DNA from: an uncultured Candidatus Saccharibacteria bacterium
GTDB lineage: Bacteria; Patescibacteriota; Minisyncoccia; Phycocordibacterales; UBA9973
Reading direction: 5' to 3'
DNA length: 64,000 nucleotides
Assembly (NCBI GenBank): GCA_964484005.1
Contig: CAZADR010000001.1
Span: 43,927-107,926, forward strand
Within the stretch, counting starts at the first letter, position 1. Every line of letters starts with the position of its first letter. Shown here one piece after another: positions 11,905-62,079 of the stretch. The translations under genes and the position numbers were made by a program. The notes below the pieces were generated by a model. That model ran no database searches. It was given only the letters and a program-made list of their open reading frames with translations, and was not told the origin of the DNA.

Positions 11905-14900
11905 ATGCTCAAGAAACCATTTATAAAAAGATTACTTTTTTCAAGCTTTTTTGGTTTGTCGTTTTTCTTTGTGTTTTTCTTTTCTGCCGTTAATCCTGTT
12001 TCTGCTTTTGATTTTAATTTTGATCTAAACTCTACTACAATCAAAGCTTCCACTTTGTCTGCCAATTTATCAGAAAATGCTTGGGATTTTTATGTTGTTA
12101 ATGTGGTAGAGCCAACTAATAATGTTTTACAAGAAGTAATTAATTTTTTTCTAGATTCAAATACTTACCAAGTTGTTTTGCCAGAAACTCCACTCCAAAC
12201 AGTTACTTCTTTTTTAAACAATACTTATAACTCTTATAACAATTACATCTTAAGACCAGGCGTAGCAGCTATTGAAAAATCAAATGTAACTTTTACAAAA
12301 ATAACTGACAATATTACAGTACCCAAAATTAGTGTTCCCAAGGTGGGCATGGTAGCAAATGTATCAAGTATTATTGATGGTGTAAACAATTTCAGTAACA
12401 CTCTCTTTTCTCTCTACGACGAATATGTCATTGATCCTTTGGCACAATTGTGGGGAGGGATATTTTTTAATATTTCAAATAATTTAAACAAAGTACCGCC
12501 AACATCGGTAGTAAAAATAGAAACTCCTCCAGCCAAAACAGAGATAGAGCCTAAGCCTCTATCTGGGTCTCCAATAGTTTACCTAAACAATAATCCTTCA
12601 ACCAATCGAGGTCTACAGGGTCCTCAAGGAATACAAGGACCAATGGGGCCACAAGGACCCACTGGCGAGAGAGGTTCATCTGGGAGTGACGGTAATACGA
12701 TAGACACCTCTTCCTTCGTCTCTGAAACTGATTTTGATAATCAAGTAAATGCCCTCTTAAATTCTATTGAAAATGGTCTGTCAGGTTTGTCTGAATCTAT
12801 CTCTGAAGAAGTCAATACAGATTTACTGACAGTAGCAGGCAATGCCACTATCGGTGGAGATTTGATGGTCAATGGGCAAGGAATATTTACCCGAGTTCCC
12901 ACTCTGGCTCATGCCTTCGCTCCTTCATGGCCACTCGGTGTTTCTAATGTTGCCGATGCCACTCTCTACATTAATCCTGCTTCTTCAGTAGCAAGTGGCA
13001 ACTTGATTGGCGCTGCCATAAACGGCACAGTAAAATTCATCGTTGATGCTGACGGAAATGTTTATGCCAATAATATGATCCTAAATGGGAGCGTCACTAG
13101 TGGCGCGACGACTGTTTCCAGTTTGTCGGTGTTGGACAATACTATCCTAGGAGATGCTGGCGTAGATACGATTACGGTAAATGGCAGAATTAATTCTGAT
13201 TTAACCTTTACGACTGACAACACCAATGATATCGGAGCAAGCGGTGTTAACAGAGCTAGGACTGGATATTTTGGTACTTCCATAATTTCTCCTGTAGTCA
13301 ATGCCACCACCGGCGTGCAAATTGCAGGTGCCGCCACGACCGGCACAATCCTGCGTGGCAACGGTACAAATTATGTGCCTACCACCGCCACTTTTGCTGA
13401 TACATACACAGCCAGCAATTTGCTCTATTCCAACGGCGCGAATACTGTTGCCGGTTTAGCGACGGCTAATAGCGGAGTCTTGGTTACTAATTCAACCGGA
13501 GTGCCATCTATTTTAGGTTCTATGACCAACGGTCAATTAGTGGTCGGCTCAACCGGCGCGACTCCTGTTTTGGCAACAATTACCGGTACCACCGATCAAA
13601 TCGTCGTTACTAATGGCGCGGGCACAATTACTCTTTCTATTCCGCAAAGCATTAATACCACTTCTACTCCACAATTTGCCAGATTGGGGGTCGGAGTCGC
13701 GGCGGACGCTACCAATATTCTGACCGCCACCTCCGCTTCCGCCACCGACCTTTCTAAAACTTTAAATATAACTCACACCGGAGCAATTACTGGTACAGGT
13801 TATGCCGGATACTTTACAAAAACTGGAGTATCTACAACAAATGTCGGCCTTTATGCTACTGCAACGGGAGCTACAAATAATTATGCGGCGATATTTGAGA
13901 ACGGCAACGTCGGCATCGGGACGACGAATCCGGGGGCGAAGTTGTCAATCAACACTGATTATTGGAATAACGCATATTTTCCCGCTGGTACGGTTATCGG
14001 TGCATATTTAGGTGCAGCGTATGCAGGATTTTTTGCTAGTGGTGCGGGCGATACTTCTAGAATAACATTAGGAAATGGAGGAACTGGGTATCAGAGTTAT
14101 ATAGAAAATTTAGCGGGAGGAGCTGGTAGTCTTAGTATTGTCAATAACAATGGCCCTGTTTTGTTTAGTGGAACCGGCAACGTCGGCATCGGGACGACGG
14201 CACCAGTTCAAAAACTTGATATGGTGGTTGGGGCGGGAGATGGTACTCAAAATGAAGCTGTTGGTATCCGCTTACGAAATACTTCTGTTGTTGGTAATAC
14301 AAACACTTTACAAATAGGTCTTAATTCTACATTTAATGCTGGTGCAGCACAGCCAGGCTATGGTTACCTTCAATCAGTTTATTGGGGAGGAAGTGTCAAT
14401 GCCCTGATTTTGAATCCTCAAGGTGGTCCAGTTACAGTTGGAACTGCTACTGATTTTAATCCAGGAGGATTTTTAGTAAAGGGAATTACTTTAGTTTCTT
14501 CTCCTACTCGTGCTGGAAATACTTTAATGGGAGGACTAGGTTTTACACATGGAGCAGGATATACACCTATTTCCGCTTCCATTTATGGAATCTATGATAA
14601 ATCTGTATGGTCTCAAGGTGCGGGTTTAGTATTTAATACAGTTTCAGGGGCAGATATTTCAGGTTCATCTGGTGTCGAGAGAATGAGAATTAGCTCAGAC
14701 GGCAACGTCGGCATCGGGACGACGGGGCCAGGGTCTCATCTTCAGATTGACGGTAATATTTCAGCAGCATCTTGGACTACCGATGGTATAGCTTTTGATT
14801 CTAACGCCGCCACTTTCACAGACACCAGTACAGCCGGAGCAGGAACTGTAGCCGTAAGAACCGCTAACAGTTTCGGAGCACCAACTTTCGCATCTACAAA

Positions 14901-15906
14901 CGCAATCACAGTAACTGACGCCTTCACTTTATATGTTCCCAAACCAATCGCTGGAACAAACACCACTATTACCAGAGCCAACTCTGCTTACTTTGAGGGG
15001 AATGTCGGGATTGGTCAAGTAGCACCAGCTTACGCCCTAGACGTCCTAGCCACCGGTACCGGAGTCATTGCTAGATTCAATAGTACCAATGCTACCGGTT
15101 GTACATTAGCTGATGGAGGAACCATCACCTGTACTTCAGATGTCAGAATGAAGAAAAACATAGAAGATATTACTTATGGTCTAGAAACCATCAAAGGTTT
15201 AAGACCCGTCTTATTCAATTGGAAATATGAAGATGATACTACTTCAAAAAACCTCGGTTTCATCGCTCAAGAAGTGGAAGCCCTAGTACCCAAACTCATC
15301 GCTACTGACGAAAACGGCATGAAGTCTTTAAATACCACCGCTATGATTCCTATTTTAACCAAAGCCATACAAGAAATGAATCTAAATCTTGAAGGAGTTG
15401 CAGGTACGATTACTCCGCTCGAAGCCTCTCCTAATGAATCTTTTGTCACTACTTTTTTTGATAATTTATTTAGCAAAGTTACCGTTTGGCTCGCTGATGC
15501 GGGGAATGGAATTGGTAAGATATTTACAACCGAAGTGGAAACCAAAAATCTCTGCGTCTCGGATGATAGCGGAGAAAAAACATGTATTACAAAATCACAG
15601 CTCGATGCCTTACTTTTAAATGCAACCGTCAGCCCTGCACCTGTGCCAGTACCCGAACCAATACCGGACCCTGTTCCAACTCCAACTCCAACTCCAACTC
15701 CTGATCCAACACCATTACCAGATCCTGTACCTGTAGTACCTCCGACATGTACTCTGCCTCAAGTCTTAGATACAACCACGAATACTTGCGTAGATCCCGC
15801 GCCAGTAATTCCGACTTGCACCCTGCCTCAAATTTTAGAAAATAATGTTTGTGTAGATCCTGTACCAACTCCACCTGCTGACACCACACCGCCAGTAACG
15901 CCATAA
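11905..15906 (+). CDS. Giant secreted tail-fibre-like surface protein with a collagen-like Gly-X-Y segment, repeated GNVGIGTT beta-structure units, a C-terminal peptidase_S74 intramolecular-chaperone autoprocessing domain, and a Pro/Thr-rich Cys-containing tail
   Basis: Signal peptide present. GLQGPQGIQGPMGPQGPTGERGSSGSDG is collagen-like. NVGIGTT(N/A/G)P recurs four times. SDVRMKKNIEDITYGLETIKGLRPVLFNW...GFIAQEVEALVP matches the endosialidase/tail-spike chaperone domain (S74). The C-terminus is PAPVPVPEPIPDPVPTPTPTPTPDP plus a TCTLPQ(V/I)L...C(V)DP motif twice. Confidence 0.85.
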   Translation: MLKKPFIKRLLFSSFFGLSFFFVFFFSAVNPVSAFDFNFDLNSTTIKASTLSANLSENAWDFYVVNVVEPTNNVLQEVINFFLDSNTYQVVLPETPLQTVTSFLNNTYNSYNNYILRPGVAAIEKSNVTFTKITDNITVPKISVPKVGMVANVSSIIDGVNNFSNTLFSLYDEYVIDPLAQLWGGIFFNISNNLNKVPPTSVVKIETPPAKTEIEPKPLSGSPIVYLNNNPSTNRGLQGPQGIQGPMGPQGPTGERGSSGSDGNTIDTSSFVSETDFDNQVNALLNSIENGLSGLSESISEEVNTDLLTVAGNATIGGDLMVNGQGIFTRVPTLAHAFAPSWPLGVSNVADATLYINPASSVASGNLIGAAINGTVKFIVDADGNVYANNMILNGSVTSGATTVSSLSVLDNTILGDAGVDTITVNGRINSDLTFTTDNTNDIGASGVNRARTGYFGTSIISPVVNATTGVQIAGAATTGTILRGNGTNYVPTTATFADTYTASNLLYSNGANTVAGLATANSGVLVTNSTGVPSILGSMTNGQLVVGSTGATPVLATITGTTDQIVVTNGAGTITLSIPQSINTTSTPQFARLGVGVAADATNILTATSASATDLSKTLNITHTGAITGTGYAGYFTKTGVSTTNVGLYATATGATNNYAAIFENGNVGIGTTNPGAKLSINTDYWNNAYFPAGTVIGAYLGAAYAGFFASGAGDTSRITLGNGGTGYQSYIENLAGGAGSLSIVNNNGPVLFSGTGNVGIGTTAPVQKLDMVVGAGDGTQNEAVGIRLRNTSVVGNTNTLQIGLNSTFNAGAAQPGYGYLQSVYWGGSVNALILNPQGGPVTVGTATDFNPGGFLVKGITLVSSPTRAGNTLMGGLGFTHGAGYTPISASIYGIYDKSVWSQGAGLVFNTVSGADISGSSGVERMRISSDGNVGIGTTGPGSHLQIDGNISAASWTTDGIAFDSNAATFTDTSTAGAGTVAVRTANSFGAPTFASTNAITVTDAFTLYVPKPIAGTNTTITRANSAYFEGNVGIGQVAPAYALDVLATGTGVIARFNSTNATGCTLADGGTITCTSDVRMKKNIEDITYGLETIKGLRPVLFNWKYEDDTTSKNLGFIAQEVEALVPKLIATDENGMKSLNTTAMIPILTKAIQEMNLNLEGVAGTITPLEASPNESFVTTFFDNLFSKVTVWLADAGNGIGKIFTTEVETKNLCVSDDSGEKTCITKSQLDALLLNATVSPAPVPVPEPIPDPVPTPTPTPTPDPTPLPDPVPVVPPTCTLPQVLDTTTNTCVDPAPVIPTCTLPQILENNVCVDPVPTPPADTTPPVTP

Positions 15907-25022: not shown

Positions 25023-25096
25023 TCCGGGGTAGCTCAGCGGTAGAGCGGTCGCCTGTTAAGCGATTGGTCGTAGGTTCGATCCCTACCCCCGGAGCA
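25023..25096 (+). tRNA. tRNA-Asn (anticodon GUU); serves as an integration site
   Basis: TCCGGGGTAGCTCAGCGGTAGAGCGGTCGCCTGTTAAGCGAT...GTAGGTTCGATCCCTACCCCCGGAGCA. The last 14 nt overlap the 3' end of the serine recombinase ORF on the opposite strand. Confidence 0.9.
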
Positions 25097-26642
25097 ATGT
25101 TTTGTATTTAGTGCTATTTTCACTTTTTACCTTACTGGTATTAGGTTTTTTGAGTTCGAATTTATTTTGAGCGTCAATTCTCTCTTGAATCCTCTTTGAA
25201 ATCTTTTTTACTGAACTCTTTAAAACAGTATCAGCTTTCTTGTCTTTCAAGATTAGGTTCGCGAAAATGTGAGATAAGAGCAACCGGCGTTCTTCTGGGC
25301 TTCTCTTTTCGTATATTTCTCTGGCCCGGCGTGCGAGATCCAAGATGTTTATATACAACTCAAAATATTTTGTTTCCTCGTTCTTCAACTTGGTTATTTG
25401 ATTTTGGATTTCAGCTTGCTCGGTGTTTATCTCTTTCTGCTTCGCTTCCCACCTTTCTTGGGTTATTTTTTCGGACAATCTGTCATTGTAGAGTATATCC
25501 AGTTGCCTCTGTAAAGCGTTATAGCGAAGATCTAGGGCTTTAAGAGTATTTTCCTTGTATTCGGATTCTAGCTTATGATCTGCCTTAATTTTGTCCCTTA
25601 TGAGGTCTGCCTCTTTTTCAGTTATATTCTCAAAGAAACGGAATGCTCCTATCAAGGAAACATCCAGATCAGTTTCTTTAGTCATTCCTTTTTGGGAACA
25701 GGGCCGGTTGTGTTTGCAAGAATAATAAACAATTCCTTTTTGTATCTCACCACTTATTGAACCTCCACATTCTCCACACTCAATCATTTTACTGAACTGA
25801 AAGGTATGTCTTTTGTAATGCGGTGATTTACCTCGTGTAAGTGTAAATTGCACCTTATCAAAAAGCTCCTTCGATACCAACGGTTCGTGCTTTCCGTTAT
25901 GCACAAAATCGTTCCATCTTAATAATCCCATATAAAATGGGTCGCGTAGTATATCTTCCAATCTACTCTTTGAGAGCTTACTACCATTTCTAGTTCTTAA
26001 TCCATCCTCATATAATTTTTCCCGCAAACCAGTTAGAGAGTAATTTCTGGTTGCGTAATACTCAAATGCTTTCTTGATAAAGCGACTTTTATCTTCATCT
26101 ATGATATGAATTTTGTGTCCCTTTTCACCGATCGTTTTATATCCTATTGGAGGTTTTGCCGGTAGCCATCCCTGTGCAATTTTTTCTTTCTGACCCTTTT
26201 TAACTTCTTCCGAAAGATTAGAAATATACTTCTTCGCAAGGACTATTTCAATATCCCAACGAAACTTCTCGTCTGATTTGGCGTATCTGTGTATTACTAG
26301 ATTTTGTTTCACGAAATGTATCTGGTGTTTTTCGTCTGCCTCTATCCAATCATTCGCAGTTATTGCGTCCACAAAATTTCTTGTAAGACGATCCACCTTT
26401 TCACAAAGTAAAATAGGAACATCTTTCTTTTTTAGATATTCCATCATTTCCCCGAATATCTTTCTTTGCTTTGCGCCACTAGCAGATTCTGCCGGAGCGA
26501 ATGACCTAACTACCTCAAAACCTTTCCTGTTTGCATATTCTACAAGCAACTTCTCTTGGGAGGGCAAAGAATAACCAGTTTCTTCTTGTTCCTTTGAGGA
26601 TACTCTGCAATAAATTACGCATTTGATTCTAGTTAGATTCAT
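25083..26642 (-). CDS. Large serine recombinase (integrase), copy 1; C-terminus encoded within the tRNA-Asn 3' end
   Basis: VIYCRVSSKEQEETGYSLPSQ catalytic Ser region. DRLTRN. C-terminal zinc-ribbon and coiled-coil typical of large serine recombinases. The stop codon TAG lies at 25083-25085 inside the tRNA. Confidence 0.85.
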   Translation of the reverse strand: MNLTRIKCVIYCRVSSKEQEETGYSLPSQEKLLVEYANRKGFEVVRSFAPAESASGAKQRKIFGEMMEYLKKKDVPILLCEKVDRLTRNFVDAITANDWIEADEKHQIHFVKQNLVIHRYAKSDEKFRWDIEIVLAKKYISNLSEEVKKGQKEKIAQGWLPAKPPIGYKTIGEKGHKIHIIDEDKSRFIKKAFEYYATRNYSLTGLREKLYEDGLRTRNGSKLSKSRLEDILRDPFYMGLLRWNDFVHNGKHEPLVSKELFDKVQFTLTRGKSPHYKRHTFQFSKMIECGECGGSISGEIQKGIVYYSCKHNRPCSQKGMTKETDLDVSLIGAFRFFENITEKEADLIRDKIKADHKLESEYKENTLKALDLRYNALQRQLDILYNDRLSEKITQERWEAKQKEINTEQAEIQNQITKLKNEETKYFELYINILDLARRAREIYEKRSPEERRLLLSHIFANLILKDKKADTVLKSSVKKISKRIQERIDAQNKFELKKPNTSKVKSENSTKYKTLLRG

Positions 26643-33680: not shown

Positions 33681-35345
33681 TTAATACGCTAAAAGTGACT
33701 TTATTTCAGCCAATGCTATACTAGGAAAAGGATATTCTTCGAGCCAATTTATAGTTCGAAAGTCGTCCACAATACCGAGCAATGTTTTGTATTTATAGTC
33801 AAAATCAGACTTTTGTATTGGAGATACAAGGCTTTTTTGTAGTTCGTAGACTTCATTTAGCTTAGGAATCCATTCAAGCAGATATTTGCATGCTAAATTG
33901 TAATTTGGCTTTATTTCATTTACGTTTTGTGCGAAGTTCGTAAATAATTGAGCAAACAATAACCTCTTTTCATCTGTAAGTGCTTGCTCGTAAATTTCTT
34001 TAGCCTTGAAAGCTAATTCGTGGATTATTAAACGCAACTCTTGGTAATCATCGCTTTGGCTAACAACTTTTTCAAGCGTAGATTCAAGGGCATCTTCTTC
34101 AGTTTTACATTCAGCAATCTTTCTTTCGCAATATTCAAGTGGTACTTCTTTGTTTATTGTTGCCTCAAAATATTTATCTTTCTGTTTTCTTATGCTTGTG
34201 AGTAGCCCATTCAGTCTTTGAATTTCAGTTTCCCTTAACTTCACATTCTCAGCATTTTCTTCCAAGATAATTCCTTCAATCCATTTTAGTACCGCTTCAT
34301 TCTTAGGGGCTATTTTAAAGAATACGGGGTCTACCTGCTTTTCTACTTCTTCCTCCTTGATATAGGTCTTTTTGGTGCAATGACGAGATTTTAAGTGGTT
34401 ATTACAATGTCCATAAAGAATACCTTTTTGTGTTTCCCAGCTCAATACTCCGCCACAACCATCACAAAAGATTTTTCCTTGAAATAAATAATTGTGCTTG
34501 GTGGTAATAACATTTTTACCTCTTCTTTTAAGAACACTTTGTGCTTTCTCAAATAAGTCTTTGGTAATTAAAGGCTTGTGTTTTGCTGGGTATATTTCAC
34601 CTTTCCATTTCATTTTGCCATAGTAGAATGGGTCTTGAAGTAATTCATAGATTCTACTTTGTAAAACTTTATTTCCATTTGTTGAACGAAGCCCCGTTTT
34701 ATACATTTCATCCTCAAGACTTTGTATAGAATAGTTTCCCGTAGCATATAGCTCAAACATTTTTCTAATATGCGGAGCAACCCCATCATCAATCACATGT
34801 ATTTTGTGTCCTTTGTCCCCAATAGTTTTATATCCAGTTGGTGGTTTGGTTGGCAACCATCCTTGTGCTATTTTTTCTTTCTGCCCCTTTTTCACTTCTT
34901 CGGAAAGGTTAGCTATATATTTCTTTGCAAGAACAATCTCAATATCCCAACGAAATTTTTCGTCCGATTTGGCATACTTGTGTATTACAAGGTTCTGCTT
35001 AACAAAGTGAAGCTGTCTTTCTTCATTAGCCTCAATCCAATCATTTGCTACGACTGCTTCCTTGAGGTTTCTGGTGAGTCGGTCAACTTTTTCACACAAA
35101 AGAATTTGAATATTATTTTTTCCCATATAGCCCATCATTTCAGCAAAGATTTTTCTTTGTTTTGTTCCACTTGCAGATTCTGCAACAGAAAAAGGTTTTG
35201 CCACTTCAAAACCTTTTCTATTTGCATATTCAATTAGTAATTTTTCTTGCGAGGGAAGCGAGTACCCCGTATCCTCTTGTTCTTTTGATGATACACGGCA
35301 ATAAATAACGGCTTTATTCTTTGTGTTTTTTATTTGAGTTTTCAT
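33681..35345 (-). CDS. Large serine recombinase (integrase), copy 2, full length
   Basis: VIYCRVSSKEQEDTGYSLPSQ...DRLTRN, roughly 60-70% identical to copy 1 over the catalytic domain. An internal site at 33777-33795 repeats the copy-1/tRNA junction sequence. Confidence 0.85.
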   Translation of the reverse strand: MKTQIKNTKNKAVIYCRVSSKEQEDTGYSLPSQEKLLIEYANRKGFEVAKPFSVAESASGTKQRKIFAEMMGYMGKNNIQILLCEKVDRLTRNLKEAVVANDWIEANEERQLHFVKQNLVIHKYAKSDEKFRWDIEIVLAKKYIANLSEEVKKGQKEKIAQGWLPTKPPTGYKTIGDKGHKIHVIDDGVAPHIRKMFELYATGNYSIQSLEDEMYKTGLRSTNGNKVLQSRIYELLQDPFYYGKMKWKGEIYPAKHKPLITKDLFEKAQSVLKRRGKNVITTKHNYLFQGKIFCDGCGGVLSWETQKGILYGHCNNHLKSRHCTKKTYIKEEEVEKQVDPVFFKIAPKNEAVLKWIEGIILEENAENVKLRETEIQRLNGLLTSIRKQKDKYFEATINKEVPLEYCERKIAECKTEEDALESTLEKVVSQSDDYQELRLIIHELAFKAKEIYEQALTDEKRLLFAQLFTNFAQNVNEIKPNYNLACKYLLEWIPKLNEVYELQKSLVSPIQKSDFDYKYKTLLGIVDDFRTINWLEEYPFPSIALAEIKSLLAY

Positions 35346-45078: not shown

Positions 45079-45837
45079 CTACCTCATCCCTGTGCATTGA
45101 TTTGGAAAATAAACTTCTTTTGGTGCTTGTATCTCCCAGAAAAGAGGAGGTTGTTCGCATATTTCTATGCGGTAAACTGATACTGTCCGTCCGTCTTTGT
45201 TCTCCTCATATTTGTGATGGAAAACAGACAAACCTTTTGGTTTTTTTACACGAATACAGTTTTGTTTCTGTTTCTGAAGTTTTGGTAATTTCTCCAGCCA
45301 GCTTTGCAAGAGCTCTTGCTGTTCTTCGTTTGGCGGAGGGCCCAGCTTGCTCTTGAATCTAGAATTGGGACCTTGCAGGGTAAAGCTCACTGATTCCGCA
45401 AAATCGCCAGCTCCGGTGCTGAAATCGGTGTGCCTAGATTCTGGGTACCAGGGTGTGTACGGAGACAGGTTCCTAACAGAGAGCCACTTTGCTCTTAGTT
45501 CTGGAGTCAGGTACGTGTAGTCGAAGGCATGCGCCAATTCATGCACCATAGTGGCTGCGACCTGAGAAGGAGAGTGTTCTGGACGAATCCAAATTGTAAT
45601 ACTCTTTGCTTCTCCGGGGTTAGTCATCCCCAGGTAACCCTTCCTACCAGGAGCAAAAATTACTTCCTTCCATCCTTCCGGGCGCCAAACGAGACGTACC
45701 TCTTTTGTGGCCAGGTTTCCAAGTTCCTGGTGAGCATGTGTCTTTCCTTTTGAATCTTTCCAGGGTTCAGCCGGAGAGGAAGATAGAGCAAACAGCAATA
45801 GAATAGTTGTCAAAGTACCAAGGATTGCTCGTCGCAT
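45079..45837 (-). CDS. Secreted HExxH zinc-metallopeptidase-like protein, GC-elevated (about 48%)
   Basis: Signal peptide. MVHELAHAFDY is the HExxH motif. Confidence 0.5.
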   Translation of the reverse strand: MRRAILGTLTTILLLFALSSSPAEPWKDSKGKTHAHQELGNLATKEVRLVWRPEGWKEVIFAPGRKGYLGMTNPGEAKSITIWIRPEHSPSQVAATMVHELAHAFDYTYLTPELRAKWLSVRNLSPYTPWYPESRHTDFSTGAGDFAESVSFTLQGPNSRFKSKLGPPPNEEQQELLQSWLEKLPKLQKQKQNCIRVKKPKGLSVFHHKYEENKDGRTVSVYRIEICEQPPLFWEIQAPKEVYFPNQCTGMR

Positions 45838-45930
45838 TTGCTTCCTCCTTTTTTGTTAGTCTATTCCAAATATCACAAGAGCACAATAGCTTAAAAAAGA
45901 AGAAAAAAGTGTTATAATTTTATCTATAAT

Positions 45931-46317
45931 ATGAAAAAAGTAATCTTTATCTTTTTTATTGCGTTTATTTTAAATTTAATTTGGGAAAATTTACATTCAG
46001 TTTTGTATGTTAATTATAAAGGAGGAGAAATAACTCAGTTTATACTTCTTCGCGCCACTCTATCCGATGCTATTTATATTGTCTTTATGGTTTTTCCTTT
46101 TATTGTTTTTCCAACTCTAAAAAATAAAGATTGGTTGGTAGTTATTTTGGGATTTATTATTTCCATCAGCATAGAATATTATGCACTTTCTACTGGAAGA
46201 TGGGCTTATAATTCTATGATGCCGATCATTCCATTTCTGGGGGTGGGCCTGACACCGACTATCCAACTCGGTATTCTCGGGTATATTTCGATTAGATTGG
46301 AAGAAAAATTCTCCTAA
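45931..46317 (+). CDS. Hypothetical polytopic membrane protein
   Basis: ORF with 3-4 transmembrane helices. Confidence 0.4.
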   Translation: MKKVIFIFFIAFILNLIWENLHSVLYVNYKGGEITQFILLRATLSDAIYIVFMVFPFIVFPTLKNKDWLVVILGFIISISIEYYALSTGRWAYNSMMPIIPFLGVGLTPTIQLGILGYISIRLEEKFS

Positions 46318-46349
46318 CGAGGACGGTTCTCACTACTTTTATCCATAAA

Positions 46350-46380
46350 AAAAGAGGCATTCTTTCGAATGCCTCTTTTG
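46350..46380. terminator. Bidirectional terminator
   Basis: aaagaggcattc-tttc-gaatgcctcttt. Confidence 0.5.
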
Positions 46381-46400
46381 CCGTAGGATACCGCTACAGT

Positions 46401-47012
46401 TCAGTAAGAGCCGAATCCCGGACGAGACGGGCTCTTGTAGAGGACGCCGTGGTCGCCGGTGCCGGAGTCGTTGTAGACTTCCAGCAATACGACGAACTCA
46501 CCCCAGATGGCGGGACCGATGACGACGCCGTCGGCACCGACCCAGTTGCCGCTGATCAGAGTTGCGTCGGCCGGGGCTGCGACGATCTTGACGAAGTAGT
46601 TCCACTTCGCCGTCTTGCCGTCGGTATCTTCGTACTCGCCTTTCGTGTGGTTCGTGAGCCAGGCGCCGGAGCCGATGTACGAAGGATAACCGTAATGCCG
46701 GTCTAGCTTGTTGTCGCTGTCACAGTCCTTGTTGGACAGCCACGCGCTATTCCACTTCATCACCAGGTTGTCGTTCGCGTATGCTTGGCACCAGGCGGCG
46801 TTGCGATAGGCGTCACAGTAAGTGCCGTTGAACATCATGGCCTGGTAGTTGTATCCCCACTGGTCGTAACCAGTGGTGATGACGTTACCGGCGCCGTCGA
46901 GGATGATGTCATCCTGGATGGTGGCACATGTCTGTGCCGACGCCGTGGTCGCAGTGTTGAACACCAACAACACGAATAACGATAAGACAAAGAACTTCAA
47001 GAACTTTTTCAT
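46401..47012 (-). CDS. Secreted protein of unknown function encoded by a strongly GC-rich gene (about 60% GC) with an AT-rich signal-peptide segment; uses a TGA stop
   Basis: Signal peptide MKKFLKFFVLSLFVLLVFNTATTASA. The mature part is rich in G/Y/W/N/D. No family recognised. Composition is sharply different from the host. Confidence 0.55.
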   Translation of the reverse strand: MKKFLKFFVLSLFVLLVFNTATTASAQTCATIQDDIILDGAGNVITTGYDQWGYNYQAMMFNGTYCDAYRNAAWCQAYANDNLVMKWNSAWLSNKDCDSDNKLDRHYGYPSYIGSGAWLTNHTKGEYEDTDGKTAKWNYFVKIVAAPADATLISGNWVGADGVVIGPAIWGEFVVLLEVYNDSGTGDHGVLYKSPSRPGFGSY

Positions 47013-47175
47013 TTATAATCTCCTATGACTAAGTAATCTCTTAAGTTCAGAGACACTTGACACATTGAAGCATTATATCTATTAATATTAAATAGTCAAG
47101 AATAGGAAAGGGAATAGGAAATTTAAATAAATTATAGTATAATACAATTTATATTATTAAATAACATATCAATTT

Positions 47176-47301
47176 ATGGCAAAAAGAGGAACCACACTTA
47201 GCCCAAAAAAGAAATCAAGACGATCTCACAAAACCAAGAAGAGACTCGAGATAAAGAGAACGATGCTCGCTAAAAAGTCTAAAAACAAGAAACGCGGATA
47301 A
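47176..47301 (+). CDS. 41-aa highly basic small protein (ribosomal-protein-like); not in the supplied ORF track
   Basis: MAKRGTTLSPKKKSRRSHKTKKRLEIKRTMLAKKSKNKKRG, followed by a clean terminator at 47331-47362. Identity uncertain. Confidence 0.3.
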   Translation: MAKRGTTLSPKKKSRRSHKTKKRLEIKRTMLAKKSKNKKRG

Positions 47302-47330
47302 AATTAAGAAAAAACCTTGATATTGTCTAG

Positions 47331-47362
47331 CAAAATACCCCTATTTTAGGGGTATTTTTTGT
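47331..47362 (+). terminator. Rho-independent terminator
   Basis: aaatacccct-atttt-aggggtattt followed by tttt. Confidence 0.55.
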
Positions 47363-47425
47363 GCACCTCTTATGCACCCATTGTGCACTATTTAGCTTGA
47401 CGCTAGGTGTATCAGGGAGTAGATT
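47361..47425 (+). promoter_or_regulatory. Three (G/A)TGCAC direct repeats at 11-bp phasing upstream of a TTGACG-N17-TAGATT promoter-like element for the beta-helix protein gene
   Basis: GTGCAC at 47361, ATGCAC at 47372 and GTGCAC at 47383. TTGACG at 47397-47402 and TAGATT at 47420-47425. Confidence 0.3.
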
Positions 47426-47493
47426 TAGAAAAATGTTCAAATTCTATTAGGTTTTGTTTTTAAAGGTTTAATTATTAGTTTAATAAAAAATAT

Positions 47494-49788
47494 ATGAAAA
47501 AATATTTCTTATCTAGTTTAGGTTTTATGGTTTTAGGTTCTCTCTTGGTCGGACAAAGTGCATTAGCAGCGACAAATCCTGTCACGGGAAGCGTTGGTAG
47601 TATTACGCAAACTGATGCTATTTTGAATGGTACAAATGGAGACACTGATGCTATTGGGCATTCTTTCTGGGTATCTGATTCAACTTTTGCAACAGATTCT
47701 CCAACAATACCTCCAGGAGTTTATTCCACAGTTGATATGGGTGCGATAGCAGCTGGAGCTTCTTTTTCTGCTTCACTAACAAGTGACTTTACTGGATTTC
47801 CAGGAGCTACTGCAAATACTCCCTATTACTTTGCTGCATGGTCAAATGTAAGCGGTACTTGGTATCCAGGTGAAGTTTTAAGTTTTACGACACTTCCTGG
47901 CCCTGTTTTTATTGACACAAACTCAAATTCAGTATTTGATGAAGGAGAATTAGATTTTGACACCATAGAAGCCGCGGTAAGTGCCTCTGTTCCTGGTGAT
48001 ATTATTATTGTAACTGAAGGCCCTTTTGTATTAAATAGCACAATAAATTTAAACAAAGATATTACCTTAAAAGGGATGGGGAATCCACTTATTCAAGTAT
48101 CTGGTTCTAATATTCTTTTTAACGTTTCGGCAACAGGGGTTACAATTCAAGGATTTCAAATTCAGAAGACAGATAAATTGAGTCAAACCTTAATTCACAT
48201 AGCTTCTAGTGATACCACAATAGAAAGTAATGAAATTTTTGGTGATTATGTAGTTGGAGAGGGTGATGTAGCTCGAGCAATGGTTTTACAGGGAGGTCTT
48301 ACTGGTATAAATATTGCAAATAATACTATTCACGATTTACGCCAACCTGCATATGTTAGTGGAGTTACCACAGGAACTGTTTCTAATAATTATGTGTATA
48401 AGACTAAGGGGTGGGTTATAGAACAAGGAGATCTAACTTTTACAGATAACACTTGGGGGGAAGGGGCGAATGCAAACGTATACGACATTGCTATTCTTGC
48501 GACGGTTGGGGCTTCTTATTATACAAATATTCCAGCAATGTCTGCCGCAAACAATGATGCTTCTATAGAAGATCAACGTGGAGTTTCTGCCACTCTTTCT
48601 CTGGTATATGTTGATGGATCAGTGGAGGTGAGTGGAACCGGGACACAAAATAGCCCAAAGAAAACTCTTACAGAAGGGGTGATGCGTGTTGTGGAAGGCG
48701 GAAAGATTGTTCTTCTCTCTAATCTTTCTACTGCTTCAACCGTAGAAATAAATAAATCTTTAACACTCGAAGGTGGAGACAGTACTCTTACTGCTTCTGC
48801 GGGTTTGACGGGTACTGTTCTACTAATTACTTCAAATGATGTGACAGTAAAAAATCTTACTGTGGATGGAGGGGGGCTACCAGTACAAGGGATTCAGGCT
48901 TACAAAGTTACCGGTATCCTTTTGGATAATATAACTGCTCAAAATACTGGAAAGTCTGGCATTATGGTAAACGGCTCTACTTTGACTGTAAATAATGTAG
49001 AAACTCTTAACAATAACTGGCACGGAATAAACGTAGATCAAGGTTCAGGAGTTACTACTCTTGCAGAACTTACAGTAAATGGCACAAGTGTCCATACTGA
49101 AGTAGGCCCAGATATATTCGTAGATAACAATACAAAAGGATCTGTTGTGGATAATAATGACCAATATAGTACTGTTCCGGTGGGTCTTGGGACGGCTTAC
49201 TACCTTTTTACTAAATTTACTCTTACCTATATTGCAGGTGCTAATGGCTCAATAACAGGAAACTTGTCTCAAGACGTGATTGAAGGACAAGACGGAACAA
49301 CCGTTACTGCGGTTGCTAATGACGGATATCATTTTGATAGTTGGAGTGACGGACTTACTACAGCTGCTAGAACTGATACGAATGTAACTGGAGCACTTTC
49401 ATTTACTGCGAATTTTGCAATAGATCAATCTTCTGGTGGTAATAGTGGAAGCAGGAGAGCCACTCCTGCTACTCCTGCAACCCCAGCTGTTCCTGGAGTA
49501 AGTCCCGCAACACCAGCAACACCTGCTACCCCCGGTCAGGTTCTCGGTGCGGAGAAGTTTATCTTTACACTTTTCTTGAAAAAAGGTCCACCCTATAATG
49601 TAGGTACACAGGGGAATGAAGTCATGGAACTTCAGAAATTCTTGAATGCAGCAGGTTTTGGTATATTGGCAGTTGATGGGAAATTTGGACCATTAACCGA
49701 AGCGGCTGTTATCAAATTCCAATTAGCAAATGGACTCGTAGGAGATGGAATAGTAGGACCTCTCACTAGAGCAGTGTTGAATAAATAA
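47494..49788 (+). CDS. Secreted right-handed beta-helix (pectate-lyase-fold-like) protein with a PT-rich linker and a C-terminal peptidoglycan-binding domain
   Basis: Signal peptide. Repeated NNTIHD / SNNYVY / TDNTWG beta-helix rungs. ATPATPATPAVPGVSPATPATPATPG linker. C-terminal GNEVMELQKFLNAAGF...DGKFGPLTEAAVIKFQ (PG_binding_1). Confidence 0.7.
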   Translation: MKKYFLSSLGFMVLGSLLVGQSALAATNPVTGSVGSITQTDAILNGTNGDTDAIGHSFWVSDSTFATDSPTIPPGVYSTVDMGAIAAGASFSASLTSDFTGFPGATANTPYYFAAWSNVSGTWYPGEVLSFTTLPGPVFIDTNSNSVFDEGELDFDTIEAAVSASVPGDIIIVTEGPFVLNSTINLNKDITLKGMGNPLIQVSGSNILFNVSATGVTIQGFQIQKTDKLSQTLIHIASSDTTIESNEIFGDYVVGEGDVARAMVLQGGLTGINIANNTIHDLRQPAYVSGVTTGTVSNNYVYKTKGWVIEQGDLTFTDNTWGEGANANVYDIAILATVGASYYTNIPAMSAANNDASIEDQRGVSATLSLVYVDGSVEVSGTGTQNSPKKTLTEGVMRVVEGGKIVLLSNLSTASTVEINKSLTLEGGDSTLTASAGLTGTVLLITSNDVTVKNLTVDGGGLPVQGIQAYKVTGILLDNITAQNTGKSGIMVNGSTLTVNNVETLNNNWHGINVDQGSGVTTLAELTVNGTSVHTEVGPDIFVDNNTKGSVVDNNDQYSTVPVGLGTAYYLFTKFTLTYIAGANGSITGNLSQDVIEGQDGTTVTAVANDGYHFDSWSDGLTTAARTDTNVTGALSFTANFAIDQSSGGNSGSRRATPATPATPAVPGVSPATPATPATPGQVLGAEKFIFTLFLKKGPPYNVGTQGNEVMELQKFLNAAGFGILAVDGKFGPLTEAAVIKFQLANGLVGDGIVGPLTRAVLNK

Positions 49789-60765: not shown

Positions 60766-62079
60766 TTATTTAAGCTCTTTTAAATATTCCAAAAGCTTGT
60801 TTAGTTTTACTGTGTCTTGAGATCTATTGGACATATCTCTCACTATTACTGCATTATCAATTGCTTCTTTTACTCCAAAGATAATAGCATAGGGGATAGC
60901 GAGCTTTTCTGCAATGGCTAATTGTGAGCCGAGGCTGTCTTTAGAAAGAGATTGGGCTATGGGGATATGTGCCTTGCGTAATATTTCTATTATATTTAAG
61001 CTTTTTAGTTTAGCTTCGGAGCCAAGTTGAATAAAATATATTTTAGGTTTCTTTAATATGCGTGGTGAAAGTTTTTTATACCAGTTTGATTCTACTATTC
61101 TATCTACTCCCATGGAAAAGCCAACAGCAGGTACATCTTTTTTACCTCCTACTTGTTTGGCTAGGTAGTCGTATCTTCCACCAGAGGCGATCTGAGTAGG
61201 CAAGCCTCCATCTTCTCCGCTTCCGTTGTCTGTGTAAACTTCAAAAACAGTACGAGTGTAATAAGAGAGTCCTCTCACTAAGTTTTTATTGATGTTGTAA
61301 TTTATACCCATTTCTTCTAAATATTCCAATACTTCCTTGAAATGTTTTTTACAAGAAGCACACAAGAAAGAAATTGCATCTGGTGCATTTTCGTTTATTT
61401 CTTTTGTCTTTTCTTCTTTGGAGTCTAGGATGCGAAGGGGATTGGTCTTGAGCCTTTCTCGGTCTATGGCTGGTAAGCTGCTAAGGTGTTTTCTGTAGTA
61501 ACCAGTAAGTTCTTTTATGTATCCACCTCTGCATTCTTTGTCTCCTATTGAGTTTATGTCTATGGTGAGGTTAGTAGCTCCTGCTTCCTCTAAGATACTC
61601 ATACCTGCTTTTATAACCAACGCATCCATTATACTTTTGTCGTTTCCGAGAACATCTAAATCAAATTGCCAAAACTGTCGGTATCGTCCTCGTTGAGGCT
61701 TGTCATGTCTAAAAACAGGACCGTATTGGTAAAACATTACAGGTTGCGGCATAGTTTGCATGCCGTGTTCAATATAGGCACGCATAAGAGGTGCGGTGTG
61801 TTCTGGTCTGAGAGCTAGGTGATCTCCACCCTTAGTTTTTAGAGTGTACATTTCTTTATCTACAATATCTGTTCCTGCACCAATACTTCCCGTTAGGATT
61901 TCTTCATTTTCTAATATAGGAGTTTCGATGGGTTTAAATCCATAGTAAACGGCTACTTCTTGCGCTTTTTCAAAAAATCCTTGGAAAGCATAGTATTGTT
62001 CGTTCATTAAGTCCCTCATCCCTTTTGGTGATGCTACTTCTGCTCCCTTATTTTTATTTGAATGCGTTGTTTTTTTCAT
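60766..62079 (-). CDS. hisS: Histidyl-tRNA synthetase
   Basis: PKGMRDL, KEMYTLKTKGGDHLALRPEHTAP, GGRYD and GFSMGVDR motifs. Confidence 0.9.
   Translation of the reverse strand: MKKTTHSNKNKGAEVASPKGMRDLMNEQYYAFQGFFEKAQEVAVYYGFKPIETPILENEEILTGSIGAGTDIVDKEMYTLKTKGGDHLALRPEHTAPLMRAYIEHGMQTMPQPVMFYQYGPVFRHDKPQRGRYRQFWQFDLDVLGNDKSIMDALVIKAGMSILEEAGATNLTIDINSIGDKECRGGYIKELTGYYRKHLSSLPAIDRERLKTNPLRILDSKEEKTKEINENAPDAISFLCASCKKHFKEVLEYLEEMGINYNINKNLVRGLSYYTRTVFEVYTDNGSGEDGGLPTQIASGGRYDYLAKQVGGKKDVPAVGFSMGVDRIVESNWYKKLSPRILKKPKIYFIQLGSEAKLKSLNIIEILRKAHIPIAQSLSKDSLGSQLAIAEKLAIPYAIIFGVKEAIDNAVIVRDMSNRSQDTVKLNKLLEYLKELK

Follow-up and report, generated by a model that had tools for sequence, protein, structure and literature searches.

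How did a GC-rich gene come to lie among ordinary genes of a bacterium of the Candidate Phyla Radiation (CPR), and how much foreign DNA arrived with it? The gene occupies positions 46401-47012, on the minus strand, of a 64,000-nucleotide stretch of contig CAZADR010000001.1 (assembly GCA_964484005.1, deposited as an uncultured Candidatus Saccharibacteria bacterium), which is called the window throughout. Judged from the histidyl-tRNA synthetase encoded at 60766-62079, which is 86-97% identical to proteins of Candidatus Nomurabacteria, Paceibacterota, Minisyncoccia or Patescibacteria, the host is a Nomurabacteria-like CPR bacterium. Based on the evidence presented here, it is very probable that this bacterium acquired by horizontal transfer a whole unit that runs from a promoter to a terminator. 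In composition, no other open reading frame (ORF) of the window stands out as strongly, and the nearest relatives of the gene (69-79% amino acid identity) are found in unrelated contigs of 44-72% GC.

The gene was first described as having about 60% GC in a genome of 33% GC. It is indeed GC-rich (0.569, with 0.48, 0.43 and 0.80 at the three codon positions), but the window has a GC content of 0.356, not 0.33. The description of the mature coding region as compositionally alien was confirmed: its DNA (46401-46934) has a GC content of 0.588, the stretch 46441-46500 reaches 0.60, and the GC-richest 612-nt stretch of the window begins at 46360. A crude call of the window gave 63 non-overlapping ORFs, and 38 clear host genes served as the host reference. 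The GC content at third codon positions (GC3) ranges from 0.15 to 0.45 in the other 62 ORFs and is 0.289 +/- 0.049 in the host genes, so that the value of 0.80 lies about 10 standard deviations (SD) off. The stop codon TGA, initially counted three times in the window, is indeed rare but ends four of the 63 crude ORFs, two of these four being short and doubtful. Its presence in three relatives as well (listed below) is consistent with the codon having arrived together with the gene. Recoding of TGA is known in some CPR bacteria; it was set aside as not relevant, the host stop codons being TAA, TAG and TGA, and the ORF terminating where its homologues do.

The signal peptide bears on whether the coding sequence was transferred in one piece. 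The first-pass annotation had proposed that a foreign domain, possibly of eukaryotic origin, was fused to a native, AT-rich secretion signal. The signal-peptide codons (46935-47012; GC 0.436) are indeed AT-richer at codon positions 1 and 2, but 76-77% of their third positions are G or C (GC3 0.77); the peptide looks AT-rich because its Lys, Phe and Leu residues force A or T at the first two positions. Of the 25 codons 2-26, 19 have G or C as their last letter, whereas the same amino acids encoded with host codon usage would give 6.7 (simulated P ~5e-7), and Phe is encoded four times by TTC and once by TTT, the codon that the host genome picks 85% of the time. In the family alignment, the peptide is homologous to the N-termini of foreign relatives (proteins P0002, P0007 and others). 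A fusion to a native signal is therefore not supported, and it is further countered by the promoter, 5' leader and terminator being common to relatives in hosts of 63-72% GC. A eukaryotic source is not supported either, as all relatives found sit in bacterial or archaeal contigs.

The features of the unit, hereafter the module, are the following (other loci and contigs carrying the gene are cited by L numbers).

46345..47116, minus strand: whole imported module, ~772 bp, 51.8% GC, comprising promoter, leader, ORF, 3' hairpin and terminator
47072..47099, minus strand: predicted sigma-70-type promoter, TTGACT-16 nt-TATAAT, 11 of 12 consensus positions
47013..47071, minus strand: 5' leader, with a 15-bp hairpin (~47024-47066) followed by the Shine-Dalgarno sequence AGGAG (47020-47024)
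46401..47012, minus strand: ORF of 203 codons, ATG start, TGA stop
46935..47012, minus strand: signal-peptide codons 1-26 (MKKFLKFFVLSLFVLLVFNTATTASA then QTC), of the Sec/signal peptidase I type by inspection of the translation
46404..46934, minus strand: mature protein of 177 amino acids (aa), beta-rich, with four conserved Cys residues and a DCDSDNKLD loop
46401..46403, minus strand: TGA stop codon, also the stop in relatives L006, L088 and L098
46381..46399, minus strand: 3' hairpin 1 (CTGTAG-CGGTATC-CTACGG), between the stop codon and the terminator
46345..46379, minus strand: predicted intrinsic terminator, 9-10 bp stem GAGGCATTC-GAAA-GAATGCCTC followed by a T run

The edges of the module were placed where the similarity to unrelated contigs in blastn and MAFFT alignments ends; beyond them the flanks are unrelated. 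With L006, the closest non-identical homologue (79% aa identity), the similarity continues past the ORF on both sides (47077-46345) and spans the -10 box, the 58-nt leader with its Shine-Dalgarno sequence, the ORF, the post-stop hairpin and the T run of the terminator. It extends over 47067-46345 in L089 and over 47115-46409 in L099, which further has the -35 box and about 12 nt upstream of it (to ~47116) in common with the window. The -10 box is common to L006, L098 and L099. The leader and the 3' elements are also found in L098 and L089, the alignment with L097 covers only the 3' hairpin and the terminator, and in L088 the module is present in a diverged form. In hosts of 63-72% GC, the flanks of the module form AT-rich shoulders.

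The promoter, leader and terminator were predicted from sequence. The promoter is the best promoter-like site in 45800-47500. The leader hairpin contains three pairs with compensatory changes in an RNAalifold consensus of seven sequences, and a covariance model of it (R1) matches, in ~0.8 Mb of loci, only eight sites, all directly upstream of family genes (window, L006, L048, L088, L089, L097, L098 and L099), one of them in a further CPR genome (L048, Zambryskibacteria). In the best blastn alignment of the 58 nt upstream (-10 box and leader), the window and L006 are 93% identical, against 51% at the synonymous sites of the two genes (synonymous divergence, dS, of 0.79), from which we conclude that the leader is under selection. 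Folding of the single leader sequence is not significant (z = -0.75), an Rfam search of 46200-47300 gave no significant match and assigned the leader to no Rfam family, and a metagenome scan with the leader pattern TTAAGAGATTNCTTAGTCAT gave five matches, all by chance. Being much more conserved than synonymous sites, the leader is a candidate cis-regulatory or mRNA-stabilising element that would travel with the gene. Downstream, hairpin 1 is present with an altered stem in the window, L006, L088, L097 and L098; four of its six pairs are changed on both sides, and shuffling gave a covariation score as high as the observed 0.231 in 8 of 500 cases. The terminator, a perfect 13-nt inverted repeat (46350-46362/46367-46379) that is missing from the list of a simple terminator scan, is kept with compensatory changes in L006, L089, L097 and L099.

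A foreign origin also agrees with how composition varies within the family. A search of 185,579 species genomes (one genome per species) yielded 281 matches, and the comparisons of neighbours, GC and hosts between loci rest on the best 80 of these, all of which are metagenome-assembled genomes (MAGs). Across these 80 loci, the GC3 of the gene correlates with the GC of the flanking DNA (r=0.78); the extremes are 0.18 in an Iainarchaeum of 34% GC and 0.92 in a Thermodesulfobacteriota genome of 66% GC. High GC is therefore not intrinsic to the family, whose GC follows that of the host, and the GC3 of the window gene exceeds the regression line by 3.8 residual SD. The mean GC3 excess is +0.08 for the CPR copies versus -0.02 for those of other bacteria (Mann-Whitney P=2e-5). 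In a neighbour-joining tree, which is distance-based only and without support values, the window copy groups with L006, L097 and L088 (contigs of 66, 72 and 49% GC), the four copies having GC3 values of 0.78-0.87, and the 16 other CPR copies are scattered. Such a pattern is that of a gene imported into CPR genomes repeatedly and independently, in part recently, and it is the opposite of the outcome that would, according to the first-pass annotation, have spoken against an acquisition. The composition of the ORF points to a donor genome of about 55-65% GC.

It should be noted that several observations weigh against the transfer as we describe it. First, the nearest sampled relative is at a dS of ~0.8, so that neither the donor nor the date is fixed and the donor must be an unsampled one. 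The acquisition proposed in the first-pass annotation is well founded on extreme codon usage and foreign relatives, but it can be called 'recent' only insofar as the gene has not ameliorated. Second, exact look-ups via three neighbouring proteins returned only contigs of the same strain, all of them with the insert; as no relative with an empty site was found, the insertion was deduced, not seen. Third, the regulatory parts are AT-rich (28% GC upstream) and the ORF is GC-rich, which a piece of a high-GC genome would not predict. Fourth, direct repeats lie beside the inserts of L089 (37 bp), L024 (41 bp) and L046 (~100 bp); such long flanking repeats in other loci hint at a more specific mechanism of insertion than the one we propose. 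Finally, no homology or fold match backs a function of the protein.

As for the route of entry, we envisage that a stand-alone transcription unit of ~0.77 kb would have been taken up whole. Such a unit would be expressible wherever it lands, much like a phage 'moron', because its own sigma-70 promoter, leader and terminator are carried along. The landing site would have been the intergenic gap between a gene for a small membrane protein and a gene for a basic protein of 41 aa. Entry would have occurred by illegitimate recombination of a fragment of donor DNA, without a dedicated transposase or integrase, a route to which we give an even chance. It is favoured because the ends of the module vary and because ~87 bp of a target gene were lost at another site. 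This target is a DsrE-family gene, inside which the module lies antisense in L006 (6291-7329) and L007, from two separate JGI metagenomes: the N-terminal fragment covers Pfam positions 1-42 and the C-terminal fragment positions 72-116, with positions 43-71 missing. The L006 host has a GC content of ~66% and carries heavy-metal and sulfur genes. At the window module, no flanking direct, inverted or terminal inverted repeats were found.

Among the other explanations, the one that survives best is that the module is a non-autonomous mobile cassette that moves via a circular or tandem intermediate, or as a reverse-transcribed copy of its mRNA, with the enzyme supplied in trans. We consider this unlikely, although several loci speak in its favour. 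In L089, the common sequence runs from the predicted transcription start to the end of the terminator T run, and the 37-bp repeat flanks it on both sides; the repeats of L024 and L046 and a 12-bp repeat in L028 fit as well. The sequence after the terminator in L006 repeats the -35 region of the window (18 of 19 nt), and a related promoter copy is present there in L099. Two copies in one Gemmatimonadota MAG share 89% identity over 869 nt, and short contigs with the identical gene end at 47103 and 47071, the 5' edges of the module. Against this, the ends are inconstant: the window and L099 keep both the -35 and -10 boxes, L006 and L098 begin close to the -10 box, ~10 nt ahead of it, L097 keeps only the 3' part, and L098 has lost half of the terminator. 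The window module has neither terminal inverted repeats nor flanking repeats, no recombinase lies within 10 kb of it, and the flanking repeats differ in sequence and length from locus to locus. In addition, the second promoter copy of L006 and L099 runs into other sequence and is explained equally well by a donor locus with two similar promoters, and the loss of ~87 bp from the DsrE gene is atypical of transposition. Two specific versions were set aside, namely a retrotransposed mRNA as the general explanation, since only L089 has transcript-like ends and the others include promoter DNA, and a circular intermediate, since the second promoter copy leads into non-leader sequence.

The repeat-flanked loci are L089 840-1635, L024 4740-5700, L046 140-1300 and L028 470-1420; in L024, the repeat duplicates the final 41 bp of the gene upstream, gatB-like by eye. 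The two Gemmatimonadota copies, L028 and L064, lie on different contigs of MAG M8-62_Bin_109, and their similarity includes 238 nt upstream and 79 nt downstream. A tandem second copy is present in L071 and a partial one in L070. The short contigs, L003-L005, come from other assemblies of the same study; two of them stop at 47071, the boundary between the leader and the -10 box, and one at 47103, the edge of the -35 box. These ends could reflect a branch of the assembly graph, and hence a second context of the module, or strain variation upstream. A bolder form of the cassette explanation holds that the leader-bearing clade is a promiscuous, non-autonomous 'plug-and-play' cassette, with a cargo of a fold unseen in solved structures. 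It would travel as one piece from one bacterial phylum to another, CPR among them, and perhaps even across domains, by way of an intermediate (circular, tandem or cDNA) that leaves behind long target duplications. We likewise give this form little credence; if it were true, the combination of promoter, stabilising or regulatory leader RNA, ORF for a secreted protein and double 3' hairpin would be a new kind of gene cassette.

The possibility that the gene is a phage moron, residing in a prophage or having arrived with one, is very improbable. Morons are defined by their own promoter, their own terminator and a deviant GC content (Cumby et al. 2012, PMC3594210), and the anatomy of the module fits this definition: it is a single gene with its own predicted promoter and factor-independent terminator, a GC content unlike that of its neighbours and a horizontal spread. 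Moreover, the window contains two large serine recombinases, a run of small ORFs without annotation (36-43 kb) and a 1333-aa protein with a Peptidase_S74 domain. However, the immediate neighbours are cellular genes of host-like GC (encoding MscL, VIT1, CAP, MFS and peptidoglycan-binding proteins), the module lies outside any recognisable prophage, and no common phage neighbours are seen in the 80 other loci. Scans of IMG/VR (2.9 million contigs) with the leader pattern and the protein, tblastn against 50,697 phage records and a search of BFVD gave no viral homologue, and the sole PHROG match to the protein is not significant (E 0.021). The module also differs from morons in having a conserved, structured leader and in being present in the chromosomes of many phyla and in archaea. 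It therefore resembles a moron in anatomy but, as the phage context is absent, is not one.

Other known systems resemble the module in part. Ordinary single-gene genomic islets and compositionally atypical ORFans, as seen in the amelioration framework of Lawrence and Ochman, share with the module their atypical GC3 and codon usage, their patchy distribution and their lack of conserved neighbours. In the module, by contrast, the regulatory flanks were co-transferred and are more conserved than synonymous sites, between hosts that are >30% GC apart. Integron gene cassettes are likewise small single-ORF units of ~0.5-1 kb found in many unrelated genomes, but the module has its own promoter and variable ends, and it is not part of a cassette array. 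An attC-like site with R''/R' core boxes is absent from its 3' hairpins, and neither IntI nor another tyrosine recombinase is encoded within +/-10 kb; an integron cassette was rejected on these grounds. An insertion sequence or a miniature inverted-repeat transposable element was rejected as well, since flanking repeats are lacking in the window and the ends vary between instances.

Under a further reading, the gene would be native to CPR bacteria, and selection, for instance on expression level or on the structure of the mRNA, would keep its GC high; this is extremely improbable. The first-pass annotation had regarded CPR homologues of similarly high GC as the mark of such selection, and 7-8 of the 16 other CPR copies (L017, L020, L031, L035, L048, L063 and L073) are indeed markedly GC-richer than their hosts. 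Others are host-like, such as L021 (GC3 0.27), L046 (0.29), L067 (0.32), L026, L057 and L083; with GC3 values of 0.18-0.37 in host-like CPR and DPANN copies, high GC is evidently not needed. Furthermore, the CPR copies are polyphyletic, and the nearest relatives, including their non-coding flanks, are found in hosts of 49-72% GC.

An assembly or binning artefact, in which a chimeric contig joins CPR DNA to a fragment of a GC-rich organism, is scarcely credible: the composition does change abruptly at the edges of the ORF and several 1-kb contigs hold only this gene, but both junctions are 100% identical in three independent assemblies (ENA ERZ27247837, 161 kb; Logan ERR3094293, 11.7 kb; Logan ERR3094294, 10 kb), which answers the early concern about chimerism, the 1-kb contigs also extend into the CPR flank on the 3' side, and within the contig the gene is flanked on either side by CPR genes.

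Turning to what was acquired, dN/dS values of 0.11-0.32 versus eight relatives show that the coding sequence is functional and that the ORF is a genuine gene kept by purifying selection. Its product is a Sec-secreted, disulfide-bonded and beta-rich protein of ~177 residues, the secretion and the disulfides being predicted. Six Cys residues had been reported; there are four (29, 66, 75 and 97). C66 and C75 are absent together in P0007 and P0013, and C29 and C97 in P0017 and P0107; these paired losses suggest two disulfides, C29-C97 and C66-C75, and hence an extracytoplasmic protein, fitting the AxA signal peptidase site. The noted richness in certain residues holds for the mature protein (G 11%, D 9%, Y 8%, N 7% and W 4.5%). 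For the mature 177 residues, AlphaFold2 gave, with an alignment of 128 sequences, a model with a mean predicted local distance difference test score (pLDDT) of 94.2 and a predicted template-modelling score (pTM) of 0.86, in which a loop-rich N-terminal part with two short helices packs on a long antiparallel sheet. Profile searches against Pfam, NCBIfam and PADLOC gave no match, and a sequence-profile search of the PDB gave none at E<=10.

The DCDSDNKLD loop corresponds to a nearly invariant family consensus, DCDGDGLLD (family alignments A2 and A3), which we take to be a calcium-loop-like motif of the type DxDxDGxxD. By this motif only, it resembles the loops of thrombospondin type 3 repeats, but it is a single loop inside an unmatched fold, and Pfam TSP_3 does not match. 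In glycan-binding proteins one sees numerous invariant Trp, Tyr, Asn and Asp residues. Because the family has many such residues in addition to the DxDxDG loop, we tentatively suggest, as a possibility less likely than not to be correct, that the protein, acting extracellularly and stabilised by calcium, binds a surface or environmental polymer or acts on it as an enzyme.

The family is large. Among 5.8 billion clustered proteins there are 3,079 matches at the 90% cluster level; the best 120 of these are all ~200 aa long, 59-79% identical to the query, without a Pfam domain and, if they have a name, called 'hypothetical'. An exhaustive HMMER scan of representatives at 50% identity gave 462 clusters. 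The distribution is patchy, over >20 bacterial phyla and several archaeal lineages. The best 80 genome matches include, among bacteria, Acidobacteriota, Chloroflexota, Bacteroidota, several proteobacterial classes, Brocadiaceae, Gemmatimonadota, Nitrospinota, Atribacterota and sixteen CPR lineages, and, among archaea, Methanomicrobia and DPANN; no recurrent neighbour gene was found across the 80 loci. The only cultured carrier seen is Halanaeroarchaeum sulfurireducens HSR2, whose plasmid pHSR2-01 encodes a copy with 38% identity (WP_050049473.1). This copy (L104, NZ_CP008875.1 103219-103947) has a site-specific integrase and a transposase ~2-5 kb away. Some family members are longer (312-531 aa; P0124, P0127, P0133, P0147, P0180 and P0188), with unannotated domains between the GSGAWLTNH and YFVKIVAAP halves or in the disulfide loop. 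A scan of long members (374-531 aa) revealed no known fused domains and no Pfam match in the inserts; the fold would thus seem to tolerate large insertions.

Several further features of the window were noticed. Immediately upstream of the module, a very basic ORF of 41 aa (MAKRGTTLSPKKKSRRSHKTKKRLEIKRTMLAKKSKNKKRG; 47176-47301, plus strand) is followed by its own hairpin terminator (47332-47358), and a weak, sub-threshold Rfam match to an L31 leader (E 0.14) overlaps its start. At 45079-45837 (minus strand), a second compositional outlier (GC 0.47, core ~0.51, GC3 0.43) encodes a secreted-looking protein of 252 aa with an HExxH motif (MVHELAHAF) and only weak, sub-threshold metallopeptidase matches (Peptidase_M76, DUF6782, WLM and phrog_87). 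A host-like gene for a 128-aa membrane protein stands between it and the ORF, and it may be an older or separate import. The two large serine recombinases (25083-26642 and 33681-35345) lie in host-like DNA and adjoin the run of small ORFs, which lack Pfam matches, and a DUF8370/DUF8371 protein. The region 22000-43400 may represent one or two integrated elements; its composition is host-like, and no link to the ORF at 46401-47012 was found. The gene for the Peptidase_S74 protein (11905-15906, plus strand; an endosialidase chaperone domain, tail-fibre-like) has a GC content of 0.43, the other local GC maximum of the window, and an unusually high GC content at second codon positions (0.49).

In summary, the event at this locus is a textbook import of a compositionally atypical single gene, and it leaves current concepts of horizontal transfer unchanged. 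What is less ordinary is that regulatory RNA parts were transferred with the gene and are conserved across hosts of such different GC content, together with the breadth of the family and its unmatched fold. The case provides a clean example of an import of ready-to-express DNA, from promoter to terminator, into a reduced CPR genome; in the CPR, losses of genes are far easier to document than gains. CPR genomes appear to have received the gene often and recently, since 7-8 of the 16 other copies in this group have retained a high GC content. The co-transferred leader may be an uncharacterised regulatory element, and the protein has a predicted structure of high confidence without a solved relative, for which the plasmid-borne copy of H. 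sulfurireducens offers an experimental handle. As an unnamed and very widespread family of secreted proteins that has crossed the borders of phyla and domains many times, it is worth curating.

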